Below, piece by piece: positions 209 through 43,700 of a stretch of DNA of 64,000 nucleotides. Numbering within the stretch: position 1 is the first letter of the stretch; every line of letters begins with the position of its first letter. The stretch covers positions 1 to 64,000 of the forward strand of contig CBDDUX010000038.1 of the NCBI GenBank assembly GCA_965234725.1, read 5' to 3'. Made by a program: the position numbers and the translations under genes. This DNA comes from Thermoplasmatota archaeon. Its GTDB lineage: Archaea > Thermoplasmatota > Penumbrarchaeia > Penumbrarchaeales > Penumbrarchaeaceae. A model generated the notes under the pieces. That model searched no databases, was not told where the DNA came from, and saw only the letters and a program-made list of their open reading frames with translations.

Positions 209-3200
209 TTGTTCCTGGGAGAAATTGCCTTCACGATCCTAATTGTTATGATGATTTCCATTCCATCGGCCCTCTCTGGCGAAAGTGAAAAAGACCAAGG
301 AACGAAATCGAGTAGTCATCAATTAACTCATGAACCAAACATAAAAGATCTCACTCAATTGAGGGGATGTACGGGTATCTTCATCGAAAATGGAGGACAG
401 TGGGATCCAGAGATTCTTTTTGTTGCTGATACAGGATACGGTAAAGTCGGATTCATGAGGAACGGTTTGATCCATGAAATATATGTAAAGGAAAGGATCG
501 CATCCGAATCTCCATTCGATCCATTTTTAGATAAGGCGGAAGAAAGGATCGTCGATTCCTGCATGATCGATATCACGTTCGACAACTCGATTGTCAGTGA
601 TATCCATGGTGAGGATCCGGTTTCCACAATGTACAATTTCTTCCTTGGAAACGAACCTTCCAGTTGGGCCTCCAATGTATCTGGATACCGATCTATATCT
701 TATATCGATGTATGGAACGGGATCGATATCACCTATTATTTCAGGGAAGGATCCTTGAAATATGACATCATCCTGGCCCCGGGAGCTGATCCGTCATCGA
801 TTTCAATGTTAGTTGTTGGCACTGAAGATTTGGCGATATCAGATGATTCTTTGATAATTAAAACTTCGATTGGTCAAGATTTGACCGATTCAGACCTCAT
901 TGCATACTATCAAGACACAAAGGAAATGATTGGATCTTCATTTAAACTCAATGATAAAGGATATGGATTTAATTTAGATACTTATGATAAATATAGGAAA
1001 GTTATAATTGATCCGAAATATCATGTTAATGCGATAAATTACTCCACTTACTTTGGGGGAACAAATCGAGATTTTCCAAGAGACATGATAATTGATGATT
1101 TCGGAAATGTTTTTATCATAGGTGAAACTGATAGTGCATTTTTTCCAACTTCAGAAGAATCTTACGATAAAACTTACAATGGAAATCGTGATATTTTTCT
1201 ATTAAAATTTGATAGTAATACTCAAGAAATGGTTTTTTTTACATATATTGGTGGTTCGAATTTCGATTCGGCTGTCAAGTTTTCTTTAAATGATTCAAAT
1301 GAAATTTTCATAGGTGGAATAACTACATCATCTGACTTCCCAGTAACACCCGATGCATATTGTTCAAACATTCATCCTGGTGAGCATATAGAACCTGAAT
1401 CAGAGATATGCCTTATGAAAATTGGACAAAATGGATCCAAACTCCTTTTTTCCACATATTTTGGAGGAAGAGGTATGGATATAATAACTGGAATCGAGGT
1501 TACAAATAATGATGTCCTTATATTTTCAGGGTCTACGGATTCTGATGATTTTCCCATAACAACAGATGCTTTTCAGAAAAATAAAATTAATTATCCCATC
1601 CCTGATACCACAGATATTTTTATTGTAAAATTCAACTTGAAAGATATGTTATTGGATTATTCCACTTTTATTGGAGGATCGGGTTCTGAGGGTGCAGAAT
1701 GCATGGAATATGATAAAAAAACAGAAATGGTTTTTATTGGTGGACATACACAATCGGAGGATTTTAATGTAACGAATAGCTCCTTTCAGTCAACAATTAA
1801 TTCCTACCAAGATGGGTTTCTTTTAGCATTTAACATCTCATCAAAAAATTTGACTTATAGTACATTTTTTGGCGGATCAGGATACGATTATTTCACTGAT
1901 CTATATATTGATGAAAGGGGATTTGTAGATGCTTGTGGTAAAACAAGATCCCCAGATTTATTTGTTACAAACGGATCATATGACACAGATTTTAGTGGTC
2001 TTTATGACGGTTTCTTTCTACGTTTTAATTCTATGAATAACACCTTTGTTTATTGCTCATATATGGGCGGATCAAGCTCGGAAGAAATAAGAAGTATCTC
2101 AAGAGATAATGATGGTTTCATATATATTGGTGGTACAGTATCACATAGTAATATCGAAATGGATAAAGGCACTTTTGATTGGATTGCAGAAGGTGAACAT
2201 GAAGGATTTTATATGAAATTTGATGAAAACGGAAGTAAATTAATATATTCCACTTATATTGGTGGAACCGAAAATGATGGAGTAACTAAAGTTATATATG
2301 ATGAGAAAAATCAGGAGTCTATAATCCTTGGCCACACAGATTCTCCTGATTTCCCTATGAACAATAATTCGTTAAATAATAATTATTATGGGAATGAAGA
2401 TATTTTCCTAATAAAAATCAATCATACATTATCTCCAACCAAACCTATGAATTTAACTGCTCATTCTGGTAAATCCTTTATTGAATTGAATTGGGATCCT
2501 CCCTTAAGTGATGGTGGATCTCCCATAGATAAATATACGATCATGAAAAAACCATATGGCACCGTCTCCTTCGAAATTCTGACAGATGTAAGATCAACCT
2601 ACTTTAATGATACCAATGTTGAAAATGGAAAACTATACTGTTACGTCGTAAAGGCTCATAACTGGATCGATTACGGACCTTTGTCGATTGAGGTATCCGC
2701 AATGCCTCTTGCAATCCCATCGTCACCAAGAAACCTCACTATTGACCTAACAGGAGACAAGATAGTGAAGCTGAGATGGGAAGCTCCAGAATCAGATGGG
2801 GGCCTTCCATTGAAAGGGTATTATCTCTACAAATTCACAGGATCCGAATTAATCCCTGAAAGGATACCTGTGGTTTCGGGTGATCAATACTCCGACAGAT
2901 CAGTTATCAACGGGATCACATACAGATATTTTCTCACTGTATGGAACGATCTCGGAGAATCAATTCCTTCTAATCAGGTTAATGCTACACCAATGACAAC
3001 TCCGGTCTCGATAAAGAACATAACCGTTCGATCAGGACCTGGATTCGTTCATCTGACATGGGATCCTCCCGAAGATGATGGAGGTAGACCGATTTTGGAT
3101 TATACCATTCATCGCACGGATGGAGATTCATCACCACAATTTCTGGTAGAATCAGGTGTATTGGAATATAACGACACCGAAGTTGAAAACGGAACCAGAT

Positions 3201-22063: not shown

Positions 22064-22137
22064 GCCGCAGTAGCTTAGCAGGTTAGAGCGTACGGCTGTT
22101 AACCGTAAGGTCGTCGGTTCGAATCCGCCCTGCGGCG
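22064..22137 (+). tRNA. tRNA-Asn (GTT), no intron, CCA not encoded
   Basis: Acceptor stem GCCGCAG/CTGCGGC plus discriminator G; anticodon arm TACGG-CT-GTT-AA-CCGTA; T-loop GGTTCGAATCC. Confidence 0.97.
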
Positions 22138-38882: not shown

Positions 38883-40415
38883 ATGGATATCCAAGAGGAA
38901 GAGGGAAGGATGCCATCCATTGTCATTGTTGGAATTGGCGGTGGTGGGTCCAGGATACTATCAGATGGAATGGAAAAGGTCATCAAATACATCAATGTGG
39001 ATAGATACAACTGCCTGGCGAGAGCTGTAAGGGCAAACACCGAAAGGCCTCTCACTTTCATCGTGGATACCTCTTCGGATCCCACCCGAAAGGGATTCTT
39101 CGAGAACATTCCGGATGACCAGAAGATATCACTTTCAGAATCTGCTCGTGGTATGTCCAGAGGTGCGGGAGGGAGACCGGGTCGGGCAGCAAAGGCAGTT
39201 CTTAATGATGAAGTCGTCAAGAACCTTGCATTCAATCTCTATAAACCGATCTCAGAAGCAGAACCTGCCATTGTTGTGATCATCCATACAGCAGACGGAG
39301 GAACCGGAGGAGGTCTGACTCCCGAGGTAATCCATCATCTTGGTTACTGCTTGCCCATGTCCACAATATTCTGGATCTTCACCGTACTTCCGAAAAGAAC
39401 AGCACTCTCTCTCCTGGGTCCAAGGACCGTGGCTCCCACAATGGGGAAACTCTTGAAGGTAGCAAGAAGGGTCACACGGAGGGATTTTACAAATATTCCA
39501 TTCCGCTGCAGAGAGGTTATAAATTCAGCCATAAAACTGAAAAAGCTGGACCAGTCATATGAGTTCCAGCATTCTCGTATCGCAATTTTTCCACTCTCCA
39601 ATCACCATTTCGCCCAGTGCATGGAAGGTTTCGGCGGGAAACAGATAAGGGAAGAGGTTCTAAATCCATTCCCGATAGAACTCCTTTCCCAGGCTCTTTA
39701 TCCTTATCTGAAATATAATGTCGCAACTTATGATGAACAGGTCTGGATGCAGGAGAACTGGCCTCTCGGTCCGATAGACATCCCGGACATCATGGCGGGT
39801 CTCACATCTGAAAGGCCCTTTGTGATCCCTCACCTTTTTGTGGATCCTGATATAGATGATCAGGATAGTATTGAGAGTGTGGTTAAGGACCTGGAGGAGG
39901 GGAGGATAAGATTGGAAGTTCAGAATGGGGAAAAAGGGAGTGAGGATCTGGGCCTCTTCACTTTCACAGGTTCCTCATCAGCTCTCTTCGAGTTCAGAGC
40001 AACATCACTCTACTGCATCCCCATATACCCGGAGGGCAGTTCATATTTCGACAGTTTTGGAGATTTCGTGTCTGATATCTGGTTTCCATCACTCTCAGGG
40101 AAATTAAAATTCATCACAGGGAAACAGGGATTGAAACTAGGGGTCATCAGCCATGCAGCCAATCTCAAACCCCAACCGATCCCAAGACCTCCAGGAGATA
40201 TCGACCTGGGTTTCAAAAATGGACTTTTAGTCACACTTCTGTTTGGCGCGGTTCCCAAGGACCTACCTATCTGGCTTGAGGCGACAAGAGATATCATAGA
40301 AGGATACAAGACAGAGGATTTCTGGGAAGTATCCGGATATGATGCAAGGGATTGGTTGAACGAGATCTCAGCTTATGTTGGATGGCCTGATTGGCCTTAC
40401 AAGAAATATAATTAG
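38883..40415 (+). CDS. Divergent tubulin/FtsZ-superfamily GTPase
   Basis: T1 VGIGGGGSRI, T2 VDTS, T3 GAGGRP, T4 ADGGTGGG, T5 TVLP, T6 LSN, T7-like IDIPDI. Confidence 0.75.
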   Translation: MDIQEEEGRMPSIVIVGIGGGGSRILSDGMEKVIKYINVDRYNCLARAVRANTERPLTFIVDTSSDPTRKGFFENIPDDQKISLSESARGMSRGAGGRPGRAAKAVLNDEVVKNLAFNLYKPISEAEPAIVVIIHTADGGTGGGLTPEVIHHLGYCLPMSTIFWIFTVLPKRTALSLLGPRTVAPTMGKLLKVARRVTRRDFTNIPFRCREVINSAIKLKKLDQSYEFQHSRIAIFPLSNHHFAQCMEGFGGKQIREEVLNPFPIELLSQALYPYLKYNVATYDEQVWMQENWPLGPIDIPDIMAGLTSERPFVIPHLFVDPDIDDQDSIESVVKDLEEGRIRLEVQNGEKGSEDLGLFTFTGSSSALFEFRATSLYCIPIYPEGSSYFDSFGDFVSDIWFPSLSGKLKFITGKQGLKLGVISHAANLKPQPIPRPPGDIDLGFKNGLLVTLLFGAVPKDLPIWLEATRDIIEGYKTEDFWEVSGYDARDWLNEISAYVGWPDWPYKKYN

Positions 40416-40421
40416 AATATA

Positions 40422-40469
40422 TCTGGAAATTCTTAGGTAATTACTAATTGATCAACAATTTCCAGATTT
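40422..40469. repeat. 48-bp direct repeat, copy 1, with 10-bp terminal inverted repeats
   Basis: TCTGGAAATT-CTTAGGTAATTACTAATTGATCAAC-AATTTCCAGA-TTT; identical copy at 40630-40677. Confidence 0.95.
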
Positions 40470-40629
40470 TATTTATCTGGCAACTCACTTGCGTCACTGA
40501 TATAGAAAAACGTGAATTCGAGACCATTGTAAAAAACAGGCTTCGCCTTAGGTTTTTTACTGTCCTTCGCATCACAGATACGAAGGCCCAGCAACAGTAG
40601 ATCGTCAATTTCAAGAACTACTGTGCGGG

Positions 40630-40677
40630 TCTGGAAATTCTTAGGTAATTACTAATTGATCAACAATTTCCAGATTT
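40630..40677. repeat. 48-bp direct repeat, copy 2
   Basis: Identical to 40422-40469. Confidence 0.95.
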
Positions 40678-40681
40678 AAAT

Positions 40682-40716
40682 AAAAAAAAAGGGGAAGGTC
40701 AACAAAGACCTCCCCC
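40682..40716 (-). terminator. Hairpin plus U-tract terminator after the 40743..44981 gene
   Basis: Minus strand GGGGGAGGTC-TTTGTT-GACCTTCCCC followed by T9. Confidence 0.8.
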
Positions 40717-40742
40717 ATCAGGTTCTTCTCTCAAACCGGTTC

Positions 40743-43700
40743 TCAGATCCTCTTGGTGGTCTTCAGCAAGAGCGCAGCTCCGACGAGTGCGACAATGGCC
40801 AGCAGGATGATGAGCATGGTGGAGATTATCGGGTTGTTGTTCACCAGCTCCTTCACAACAAAGCTGCCCTGGACCTTGACGGTCCTGCTAACTGAGTTGC
40901 TGTCTCCTTCTCCTCCGGGTGCTTCAACAACGGTGTTCTCAGGATCGAGAATTACCTCGACCTTGTGATCACCTGCTTCTGCGACCCAGGAGAAGATGAC
41001 CGTCTTCTCATCGGTCTCATTGTCTCCGTTCCTTACTGACCTCAGGGTCGAGACCTTCTTCTCCTCACCATCGATCTTCAGCTGGACATCCACGTTCTCT
41101 GCGGGGATATCACCGACGTTCTTGATCTTCACTATAATAGTGAGGACATCACCGACGGTGGCATGATAACCGCTGTCTGCGTTACCACCCGAGAATTCCA
41201 CTGCCCTGCCCTTATCGTCCTTCACGAAGACGAGATCGGGGAACAGGACCTCGAGCTTGATGATGGTCTCATTCCAATCGTTCGGACCACCCTCTCCGCG
41301 ACCTGCGACAGAGATGTCTGTGGTCGCTGAGGACTGGACCTCGAACCTCGGAGCCTTCAAAGTCAGATGGACCCATGCGGTCTGACCCTTATCCAGGACA
41401 AGGGTTATGTCGCGGATCTCGTTCAGGTTGGATCCAGAAACCGCTGCTGCGGTGAAGTTCGGTGTGTAGTAAACATCCGCCACCAGATTCGAGATCGGGA
41501 TCTCGTTGGTGAAGTCGAAGGGTCTTATGTTGGTCGTGAAGTCAGGTGTGTTGGCGATTGCAACAAACTTACCTTCCCAACCATCATAGAGGACCTCCAT
41601 CTGGTCCCTGACCGGATCATACTGCTTTCCAAGCCTCAGGGTTACCCTCTCGAGGCCGTTTCCGTAGTTGCCGACCCGGAGGACGAATGGTTTCTCCTGG
41701 TCAGGCTGGATCTGGGCGGTCATGACATTGGTATCGTCCAGGGTTTCGACCTGTAGATCGTATGTCTGATTCACATAGACCTTAACGTATACGACCTTGG
41801 ATGAGCCTTCACCTGTCAGATTCACTCCAACAACATACCAACCGGTCCTTGTGTTTTCCGGGACCTTGATACGGCCGTTGATGAAGATATTGCTCTTCCA
41901 GTCCATGGTGAACTCATACTTCTGGTAACCTTCCAGATTGTAGAAGGTCAGATTCCAATCAAGGAGGATCTCGTAGGCATTGGGCATGATCATGTCCTCG
42001 CCGTTCCCAAGGTTGGATACCTGCATCCTGAACCATACGTTGTTGCCGGGATCCACCCTTACACTGTCCTTTTCAATTACCACCGCATCGAACTCATAGA
42101 CATGGTTGACTATGACCGTCAGCGGAGCAGAAGCACGGATATTGGTGGCATCTTTGACCACACCTATCACATTCAGGACCAGCTTCTGATTTGCTCCAAC
42201 GTATCCGGGGGCAGTTACTCTGATGGTAACAGGTCTTGTCTGTCCCTGGTATACCGCCTGGGGTTCCTCGGGATATCTAACTGTCCAGCCAGGCTGCTTA
42301 CCTTCTATTGAGAGTACAACATAGATAATATCCTTGTTACCAAGGTTGGTTATCTCAAGTGTGTATTCCACAGTTCCGTTCGGATCAACATATTTGGTGG
42401 AATCCTCGATCCTGAGCTGAAGTTCGTTCACCTCACCGACTATCATGATCAGTTTGTCGACCTTGATGATATCCTCGATAACTGCTTCCTTGGACCTTCC
42501 GGAAACACCGGTCAATATGATGGGGATCTGTGTATCCTTGGTAGCATCGATGGGACATTTCACCTTTACGGTGAATGAAGTTCCGGTGATCCCACCGAAC
42601 TGTTCGGCAAGAGGCGGCGCAGTAAGGGATATGTTCGCTGTAATATCTCCGGTCTCAACGAAATACCAATCCCAACCAGCATCCAGTGGAGGCGGGCTGA
42701 GTGTAAGCTCGTAGGTATCATTGAGGTTGCCCTTGTTCAGTACGGATATCGTGTATATACCTTCAGCTCCCGGATTGATCTTGTCCCATTTCTCGCCAAC
42801 AAGCGGATCAAGGGGATCGGTGGAAGGTTGTTTCAGGTAGTTCAACTCGAAATCCACGAACAGGTCCAGGATCGTCAGGGTGGTTATCGAATCCGAAGCG
42901 AACTGGTCCTGTGAAGAGTTGGCAGATACATTGATCCTTGCCATCTCTCCGATGTCACCTTCCCACGGAGCATAGACCGTCAACTGAAGGAAAGCAACCT
43001 CTTGTGAAGCGAGTCTCACATAGCTCGGATTATCGTTTCCTCTGTCTGGGGGTGTGTCCAGGAAGACAGACCAGCCCTGGGGGATGGAATCCTGCTCGAC
43101 TTCAACATAGATAACGTCCTTGTTGACCTCTGAGATGCCCTTTCCGGTGTTCTCAACGGTCAGGTTGTATGTGACATATGATCCGGGCTGGGCGGACTTC
43201 ACAACGGTGTCCAGGGGTTGTCCGGTCTCTATGTCCTTCCTGGGATAGATATCCACACCGAAGGAGGTCTGGGGGTTGTAGAATCCGGTCCTGTTGAGAT
43301 CATAGTGGAACTCGGCCCAATCGGCCTGGCCCTTTACGGACCTTCCACCAGCGGAGATGCAGTAGACATGGCCTTCCTGGTCTCCAATGACGACCTCAAG
43401 CATACCATCCAGATCTATGTCACCAACCACTGGTGATGAGATCCCTATGGGGACTGTGGTGTCGTAAACCCAGAGAACATCCTGGGTAGGACCGTCTCCC
43501 GGATATGGTACTCCTTCATCTATACCATCGGACGGATCTCCATCGAAACAGAAGACCTTGCCCGAATCAGAACCTATAACGATCTCCAATTCATCATCAT
43601 TGTTGATATTACATATCGCGGGAGAAGACATACATCTTCCACCCGTATCGAAAGACCATAGAAGGTTATGATATTCAGTGTTCATCACATACATCATACC

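Follow-up and report, generated by a model that had tools for sequence, protein, structure and literature searches.

What is the densely folded stretch of DNA that separates a tubulin/FtsZ-like gene from a convergent surface-protein gene in this archaeal genome, and does it belong to either gene? The stretch, hereafter the cassette, occupies positions 40422–40677 of the window, by which we mean the whole piece of 64,000 nucleotides that was analysed. The window lies on contig C38 of a genome of 3.54 Mb, 114 contigs and 45% G+C (G000). We propose, with a probability of roughly 0.6, that the cassette is a short tandem array containing one unit of a lineage-specific, modular, hairpin-rich repeat family, the core of which also occurs as cargo of MITE-like elements that have the ends of IS110-family insertion sequences (IS).

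Anatomy of the cassette

The two perfect 48-bp copies, 208 bp apart and with 10-bp inverted ends, that the initial annotation had reported were borne out by a repeat search. The direct repeats at 40422–40469 and 40630–40677 are 100% identical and start 208 nt apart, and each is an imperfect palindrome with arms of 22–23 nt that are 77–78% complementary, the outer 10-nt arms being perfect. In the first copy, which leads the short array and is tentatively placed on the minus strand, a 45-nt imperfect palindromic hairpin (40422–40466) is followed by TTT. We termed this hairpin module hp. The second copy, likewise assigned to the minus strand, is identical to the first at 45/45 positions of the hairpin. 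A third hp is absent, as a 45-nt pattern with up to three mismatches found only these two sites in the whole window, and 0 of 100 shuffles matched it.

The two hp repeats enclose four hairpins, P1 to P4, which together with their spacer are assigned to the minus strand. A short, AT-rich spacer or ‘tail’ (40470–40480), delimited by reading the sequence, connects the first hp to P1, and a similar spacer is found in orthologous and paralogous units. P1 (40481–40525) has a stem formed by 40482–40488 with 40512–40518, carries the CGTC loop motif of the family and ends in the 3′ junction TTCGAGACC. It is covered by two matches (40474–40566 and 40474–40543) of a covariance model of the P1+P4 core, which we call R1. 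The optional P2P3 block (40526–40588) consists of the bulged hairpin P2 (40529–40560), the apical triloop of which reads GNA on the minus strand, and the 10-bp hairpin P3 (40564–40586). P4 (40587–40629) is formed by CCC-GC-ACAGTAG and CTACTGT-GC-GGG, displays the loop motif CGTCAAT and has an R1 match at 40553–40632.

The earlier reading had counted three interior hairpins. P2, P3 and P4 are where it had placed them, but the count was incomplete because P1 had been overlooked. The GCGAAGC motif that it had noticed on the minus strand is located at 40541–40547. The cassette holds no open reading frame (ORF) of note. Tandem Repeats Finder returned no row for 40300–40800, since 1.23 copies are below the reach of this tool. 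The cassette is real and non-random.

A many-copy modular family in the window's genome

A BLAST search with the interior of the cassette returned partial copies, 72–90% identical, on eight other contigs of G000. Reading of their flanks resolved the building blocks as hp (45 nt), P1, the optional P2P3 block, P4 and, in some copies, two end blocks. Iterated nhmmer searches of G000 gave 14 P4+hp, 9 P2P3, 7 left-end and 8 right-end modules. When started from P1 alone, nhmmer returned only the self-match, and the copies of P1 were reached later by R1, which has 23 matches in G000 at E ≤ 0.01. The hp module follows P4 in the 14 nhmmer matches, and its arms covary between copies. All of the 11 canonical hp copies in G000 lie within arrays, and a scan for lone hp arms found nothing beyond chance-level coding matches.

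The modules are combined in more than one way. Some elements host a nested unit in their P1 loop or in their P4 arm, and in ‘complete’ elements of about 190 nt or more the core is preceded by a left end and followed by a right-end hairpin. Seven elements in G000 are of the complete type, as are most copies in other genera.

One element copy (L015, G000:C103:10440–10732, minus-sense orientation) shares the strand of the 16S rRNA gene and lies about 100 nt beyond its 3′ end, and past the copy comes a convergent protein gene, where the 23S gene might be expected. The 16S gene in G000 is archaeal.

Distribution among genomes

At E ≤ 1e-4, R1 matched 21 of the 24 genomes that belong to the same taxonomic family, one of uncultured Thermoplasmata, with 1–47 matches per genome, counts that come from MAGs, in which repeats and transposases may be under-assembled. 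All 8 of the family genomes that are at least 90% complete were positive, and the window's own genus was the richest. Neither of the two genomes of the sister family had a match; together with the 24 family genomes these make up all 26 genomes of the order examined. A scan of 185,579 species genomes with a specific pattern produced eight matches, all of them in MAGs titled Thermoplasmata, Thermoplasmatales or Thermoplasmatota. A core pattern had 0 matches among viral contigs, and 12 genomes from outside the family gave no BLAST match to a minimal element. In a literature search, no description of the hp-core family or of IS110 MITEs in Thermoplasmata was present among the matches listed.

Conserved structure and the folding strand

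The structure of the P1+P4 core is under constraint, its helices being kept by compensatory changes. In an alignment of 70 distinct core copies, which was fitted to the model and thus leans towards the structure, 95.4% of 1500 cells are standard pairs and two-sided changes are seen in 22 of 23 core pairs (294 cells). None of 500 shuffles attained these pairing values, and in slid controls 28–49% of the cells were paired. An independent RNAalifold prediction from 11 MAFFT-aligned elements contained 46 pairs, 12 of them with compensatory changes, and the P1 stems of the orthologous copies in the congeneric genomes G003 and G004 also differ by compensatory changes. Furthermore, unpaired motifs in loops and junctions are conserved across seven genera. 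The initial annotation had allowed that the element might turn out to be single-copy, unconserved and free of covariation; it is clearly none of these, but a multicopy, conserved and covarying family.

Folded as RNA, the minus strand of the cassette reaches −87.8 kcal/mol (z −8.2 against shuffles), which is 15 kcal/mol better than the plus strand (−72.5 kcal/mol, z −5.7); the DNA fold of the minus strand has a z of −8.6. Wobbles in the core are few (25 G.U/U.G versus 33 A.C/C.A on the plus-sense strand in 1500 cells), so that the strand which folds cannot be read from the core. Their scarcity on either strand fits a constraint at the DNA level and equally fits a very stable RNA. Across 12 distinct copies, the plus strand of P3 displays 14 C.A but 0 G.T, and all 12 copies have TNC as the P2 triloop, i.e. 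GNA on the minus strand. This asymmetry and the triloop point to the window's minus strand as the folding strand, which is compatible with RNA or with single-stranded DNA.

As the helices and loop motifs are kept across seven genera, beyond what is seen in most selfish repeats, they could have an RNA function. It is conceivable, although we consider it unlikely, that the units are genes for structured small RNAs, encoded on the minus strand, which have a cellular or element-regulating role and hitch-hike on mobile ends. In four or five separate helices covariation is very strong, which argues for such genes, as do the conserved unpaired motifs, the compensatory changes between orthologous copies and the confinement of both the G.U-type asymmetry of P3 and the GNA triloop to one strand. 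Complete elements, read on the minus-sense strand, end in a hairpin that is followed by a T-run, and small-RNA cargo in an IS110-family MITE has a published precedent (PMC12288879). Against small-RNA genes speak the range of 1–47 copies per genome with variable module content, the frequency of wobbles, which is about 2% of the core pairs on either strand, and the lack of a conserved promoter-like sequence upstream, since the flanks differ between copies. Nor is there an Rfam match to the element at gathering or E-value thresholds. In the whole window only a tRNA gene (22064–22137, plus strand) passes the gathering thresholds, five element loci searched at E ≤ 10 gave weak, chance-level rows only, and the IS loci described below gave nothing at E-value thresholds.

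Relation to IS110-family insertion sequences

A link of the family to IS110-family elements is demonstrable at the level of sequence. The IS110-family recombinase domain PF01548 is found in 10 of the 24 family genomes. Two of these genomes (G017 and G006) contain an IS of about 1.5 kb, here called type A, with an ORF that has DEDD_Tnp_IS110 and Transposase_20 domains. The left ~48–55 nt and the right ~12 nt of the type-A IS are the ends of the complete ~190-nt elements, which we therefore consider MITE-like. In G017 and G002, the IS110-type IS immediately follows a resident element, adjoining its right-end hairpin.

Several observations are evidence that the MITE type moves. A 339-nt composite on C3 of G000 is precisely absent from the orthologous site in G004, the closest relative, where the flanks, 87–88% identical, abut with 3–5 nt between them, and the composite displays no obvious target duplication. 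A copy on C31 is 98% identical to this composite over 252 nt, including the nested unit. Complete elements of different genera have no synteny in common; synteny was seen only within one genus.

The core does not appear to be an integral part of the IS. R1 found no core inside any of 16 IS110 or reverse transcriptase (RT) loci, one of which has a neighbouring MITE with a core. Just upstream of the left end of an IS in G002 (L114, on contig C95) lies a core-less mini-element of about 95 nt, in which the left end is followed by the right-end hairpin. The existence of such an element shows that the P1+P4 core is optional cargo. The cassette at 40422–40677, for its part, has neither a left-end nor a right-end module of the IS type, and no enzyme is tied to the hp-core units. 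The mode of spread that we ascribe to hp-core units is thus put forward as a proposal.

The two type-A copies (L112, G017:C108, ~335–1862, minus strand; L113, G006:C22, ~1103–2633, minus strand) have a structured 5′ leader of about 300 nt. It has a 12-bp closing helix as well as a stem, an internal loop and a second stem, and the loop contains a short stretch that matches the right end and flank and differs in step between G017 and G006. The sides of the leader loop resemble the interior of the IS left end and the right end plus flank, and the leader is therefore a candidate archaeal bridge RNA.

In the window's genome we found no type-A IS110 gene. Its only IS110 match, on C42 (L115), is of another type, type B, which is also present in three copies in G004 (L116–L118, on C1, C2 and C18) and in one copy in G003 (L109, on C70). 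We rejected type B as the source of the family, as its ends are unrelated to those of the family. Type-B elements have subterminal inverted repeats. Those in G004:C1, G004:C18 and G003:C70 are inserted beside a similar left flank, which suggests a specific target; in G004:C2 and G000:C42 this flank is cut off at the contig ends. The left flank faintly resembles the P1 loop motif of the family, a likeness that is unproven.

Other mobilising enzymes were searched for in the same genomes. The Y1 transposase PF01797 was found in 0 of the 24 family genomes, control genomes being positive, and TnpB was not found, a single sub-threshold zinc-ribbon match (PF07282) being all that G000 gave. Two candidates were rejected on these grounds. 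One is an IS200/IS605-derived PATE, for which there is no Y1 transposase and so no TnpA/TnpB element with matching ends, and the other is a REP/BIME system with a cognate RAYT. RT genes occur in 6 of the 24 family genomes, none of them beside elements in the loci searched. They include G000:C47:14930–15550 (L108) and a gene on G009:C57, where the RT adjoins an IS110-family gene.

Arrays and concerted evolution of the flanking hairpins

The orthologous locus differs in module content between relatives. In G004 it reads hp, P1, P4, hp, the P2P3 block being absent; in G003 it reads hp, P1 and half of P2; and G001 has no recognisable element. The two hp copies of the locus agree at 45/45 positions in G000 and at 41/45 in G004, but the hp of G000 and that of G004 agree at only 28–30 of 47–48 positions, within flanking sequence that is 89–92% identical between the two genomes. 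Flanking hairpins thus evolve in concert within a locus, and their likeness within and unlikeness between genomes indicate array homogenisation or recombination at hp. The suggestion of the earlier reading that the perfect identity of the repeats reflects recent origin or selection sits well with such homogenisation within a locus, here and in the relatives.

Similar arrays were found elsewhere. Further perfect flanking pairs are present at G003:C23 (55 nt, period 214) and G004:C9 (46 nt, period 278), and at both loci a remnant of a P4 arm precedes the leading hp, as expected of a truncated tandem repeat. The G003:C15 array reads hp-unit-hp-unit-hp with near-identical units of 139 nt, and in another genus three 135-nt units are combined with a hairpin of a different kind. 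At the C7 locus the number of units varies: G004 has two, G000 a single partial one, and G003 and G001 have none. The flanks of two arrays of G000, on C60 and C114, are on different contigs in the congeners G003 and G004, and these arrays therefore mark synteny breakpoints. A search for clean empty sites of the C60 and C114 arrays in the congeners ended at these breaks. For hp-core arrays as a whole, we saw no empty site with sharp borders, only gain and loss of modules and presence or absence among congeners. The cassette is best read as about 1.23 copies of a 208-nt period, and array turnover or gene conversion presumably maintains the identity of its repeated part.

Arrays hold one hp more than they hold complete units, and perfect or near-perfect flanking pairs are found at five loci in three genomes. 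Both features would also result if hp were an att-like site, at which a recombinase, possibly an RNA-guided one of the IS110 family, excised the interior and one hp as a 208-bp circle and reinserted it at another hp. The position of the IS behind a resident right-end hairpin in G017 and G002, which recreates a right-end/left-end junction in the chromosome, is in line with this. So are the ISPpu9 modules with repeated end boxes that are reported to excise as minicircles and to occur in tandem (PMC12288879), and the stem-loop near the target that, according to a preprint, helps IS110 targeting (10.64898/2026.03.19.712850). Nevertheless, we regard an att-like role of hp as quite improbable. The loops of hp differ between loci, so that a unit integrated from elsewhere should be flanked by two dissimilar hp copies; the remnant of the P4 arm before the leading hp in two arrays fits an ordinary truncated tandem repeat; hp is unlike the ends of either IS110 type found; and the contigs compared, which are poor at revealing a circle junction, contained none.

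Equally improbable, in our view, is the extension of this idea in which hp-core units are mobile modules in their own right, self-contained and RNA-structured, with an att-like hp, and in which the RNA of the P1+P4 core acts as guide, decoy or regulator together with a recombinase of the IS110 family that is provided in trans. If this were true, units could excise as circles of ~140–280 bp and re-insert at hairpins and terminators; they could also nest in each other's loops and seed rearrangements.

Neighbouring genes

The cassette begins 7 nt past the stop codon of a 510-aa ORF (38883–40415, plus strand), which has a match to the Tubulin/FtsZ Pfam family with 28.2 bits and an E of 2.8e-6, short of the cut-off of 33 bits. 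DNA resembling this ORF is present in four relatives (G001, G003, G004 and G016). On the other side, a gene for a 1412-aa surface-type protein converges on the 510-aa ORF and ends at 40743. The observation, made in the initial annotation, that this downstream gene has its own terminator is confirmed by our reading of the sequence: a hairpin and T-run are located at 40682–40716 (minus strand), outside the element. The same terminator arrangement recurs beside the copies on C77, C69 and C31.

The location of the cassette raises the question of whether it is a cis-acting feature of the tubulin/FtsZ-like gene, such as a terminator, an mRNA stabiliser or a binding site. Its start immediately behind the stop codon and the T-rich run after the first hp would agree with such a role, and 7 of the 14 copies in G000 follow a gene of the same strand, beginning 0–18 nt past its stop codon. 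However, the upstream genes are mutually unrelated and encode a NAD kinase, a KaiC-like protein, an fn3 protein, a saccharopine dehydrogenase and an acyl-ACP thioesterase. Furthermore, the ortholog of the gene in G001 has no recognisable element behind it, the module sets differ in G004 and G003, and the T-run after the hairpin is not kept in G004. A cis-acting role is largely refuted by this distribution of copies and is very improbable.

The genes that adjoin the 14 copies in G000 are housekeeping genes unrelated to each other, and nothing therefore ties the element to the tubulin-like gene. The notion of a protein-binding locus tied to this gene, which had been entertained in the initial annotation, is not supported, as the other 13 copies examined adjoin unrelated housekeeping genes. 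The tubulin link is spurious.

Assembly of the locus

Four sequencing runs were compared in the form of assembled contigs. The DNA contigs of the best-matching run end inside both repeats with none bridging them, which is consistent with the presence as well as the absence of a duplication. Contigs of the RNA run, which are about 95% similar and derive from other strains, cover only the gene for the 1412-aa protein, from 40721 or 40828 on. That the 48-bp duplication is an assembly artefact, as the unbridged repeats in the best DNA run might suggest, is scarcely credible, because breaks at both repeats are expected of a true repeat longer than the assembler's word and because the hp-unit-hp layout is also found in the independent assemblies G004:C17, G003:C23, G004:C9 and G003:C15.

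A model of the family

We return to the reading of the cassette as a one-unit tandem array of a modular repeat family and outline how such a family might behave. A unit consists of the spacer, P1, the optional P2P3 block and P4, followed by the 45-nt hp, and arrays have the form hp-(unit-hp)n. Copies of the MITE type are probably moved in trans by an IS110-family recombinase. The hp-core arrays, on the other hand, may grow, shrink and homogenise via recombination between hp or other repeated modules. Such recombination could take the form of unequal exchange, gene conversion or the action of a recombinase at hp, and would keep the 48-bp copies identical. The strand that folds is presumably the minus strand of the window. 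The family as a whole is probably mainly selfish or neutral, having no dedicated host function.

Two of the readings offered initially, a REP/BIME-like unit and a non-autonomous mobile or excisable element, are favoured by these results, as the family is multicopy, modular, nested and arrayed, varies from one orthologous locus to another and has relatives among MITE-like elements with the ends of IS110-family IS. A third of the initial readings, an undescribed ncRNA processed at the repeats, is conceivable, and no Rfam family matches the element.

For annotation, the family accounts for many of the contig breaks in these MAGs and for two or more of their synteny breakpoints. It exists in three forms, as free arrays, as inserts nested in other elements and as cargo flanked by IS ends, and its five covarying helices and loop motifs conserved across seven genera are unusual for a selfish repeat. 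The family is therefore a natural data set for the study of hairpin-adjacent targeting by IS110 elements, of module exchange and of whether cargo RNAs of this sort act on the recombinase.

Comparison with known systems

The family is a new mosaic/MITE-type repeat of an uncultured archaeal family, unusually well structured and linked to IS110-family elements. Among known repeats, REP/BIME elements of enterobacteria and pseudomonads are similar in several respects. They, too, are imperfect palindromes and short motifs in variable mosaics with a lineage-specific sequence, and they, too, are extragenic and often located between convergent genes next to terminators. REP/BIME elements are also landing sites for IS110-family elements. 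The short extragenic imperfect palindromes arranged in mosaics that characterise REP/BIME are seen here in the hp palindrome and in the combinations of P1, P2P3 and P4. Unlike REPs, which occur in hundreds, the family has tens of copies per genome. Its unit is much larger (~140–210 nt, with four or five helices), there is no likeness in sequence, and a gene for a Y1 (RAYT-type) transposase was not found in any of the 24 family genomes searched.

The modular build is also reminiscent of the BOX elements of Streptococcus pneumoniae, in which middle blocks, variable in number, are set between a left and a right block that are both constant, with a high predicted fold; organism and sequence are different. 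BOX units are not known to nest in the loops of other units or to be linked to an IS110-family IS.

The structured 5′ leader of the type-A IS, about 300 nt long and with a stem, an internal loop and a second stem, is comparable to the bridge RNA, or seekRNA, a structured RNA that IS110-family elements carry in their non-coding end (Durrant et al. 2024, PMC11208160). We rejected the P1+P4 core as an IS110 bridge RNA, since the core is absent from the IS copies and the loops of P1 and P4 are terminal and start with the same conserved motif, whereas a bridge RNA has two internal loops. According to a preprint, a stem-loop beside the target aids IS110 targeting (10.64898/2026.03.19.712850), which fits the position of the elements next to terminator hairpins.

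The closest likeness is to ISPpu9/MITEPpu9 of Pseudomonas putida, in which a module for the small RNA Ssr9 has IS-end boxes on both sides, can be excised as a minicircle and is also found in tandem (PMC12288879). Both systems place a short, non-coding, structured cargo between copies of the IS's own ends. Both occur alone, next to the IS and in tandem; both involve an IS of the IS110 family (DEDD recombinase); and in both, insertion takes place beside hairpins with no obvious target duplication. Ends that are those of an IS110-family IS are present in the complete ~190-nt elements and absent from the cassette. Unlike in the Pseudomonas system, the host here is an archaeon, the cargo, the P1+P4 core, is unrelated in sequence, and this cargo is also found outside IS-type ends, as hp-bounded units that include the cassette; moreover, minicircles and trans-mobilisation are conjectural for the archaeal family. 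The family thereby adds an example from an uncultured archaeal lineage both to the mosaic structured repeats represented by REP/BIME and BOX and to the IS110 bridge-recombinase elements that carry hitch-hiking modules.
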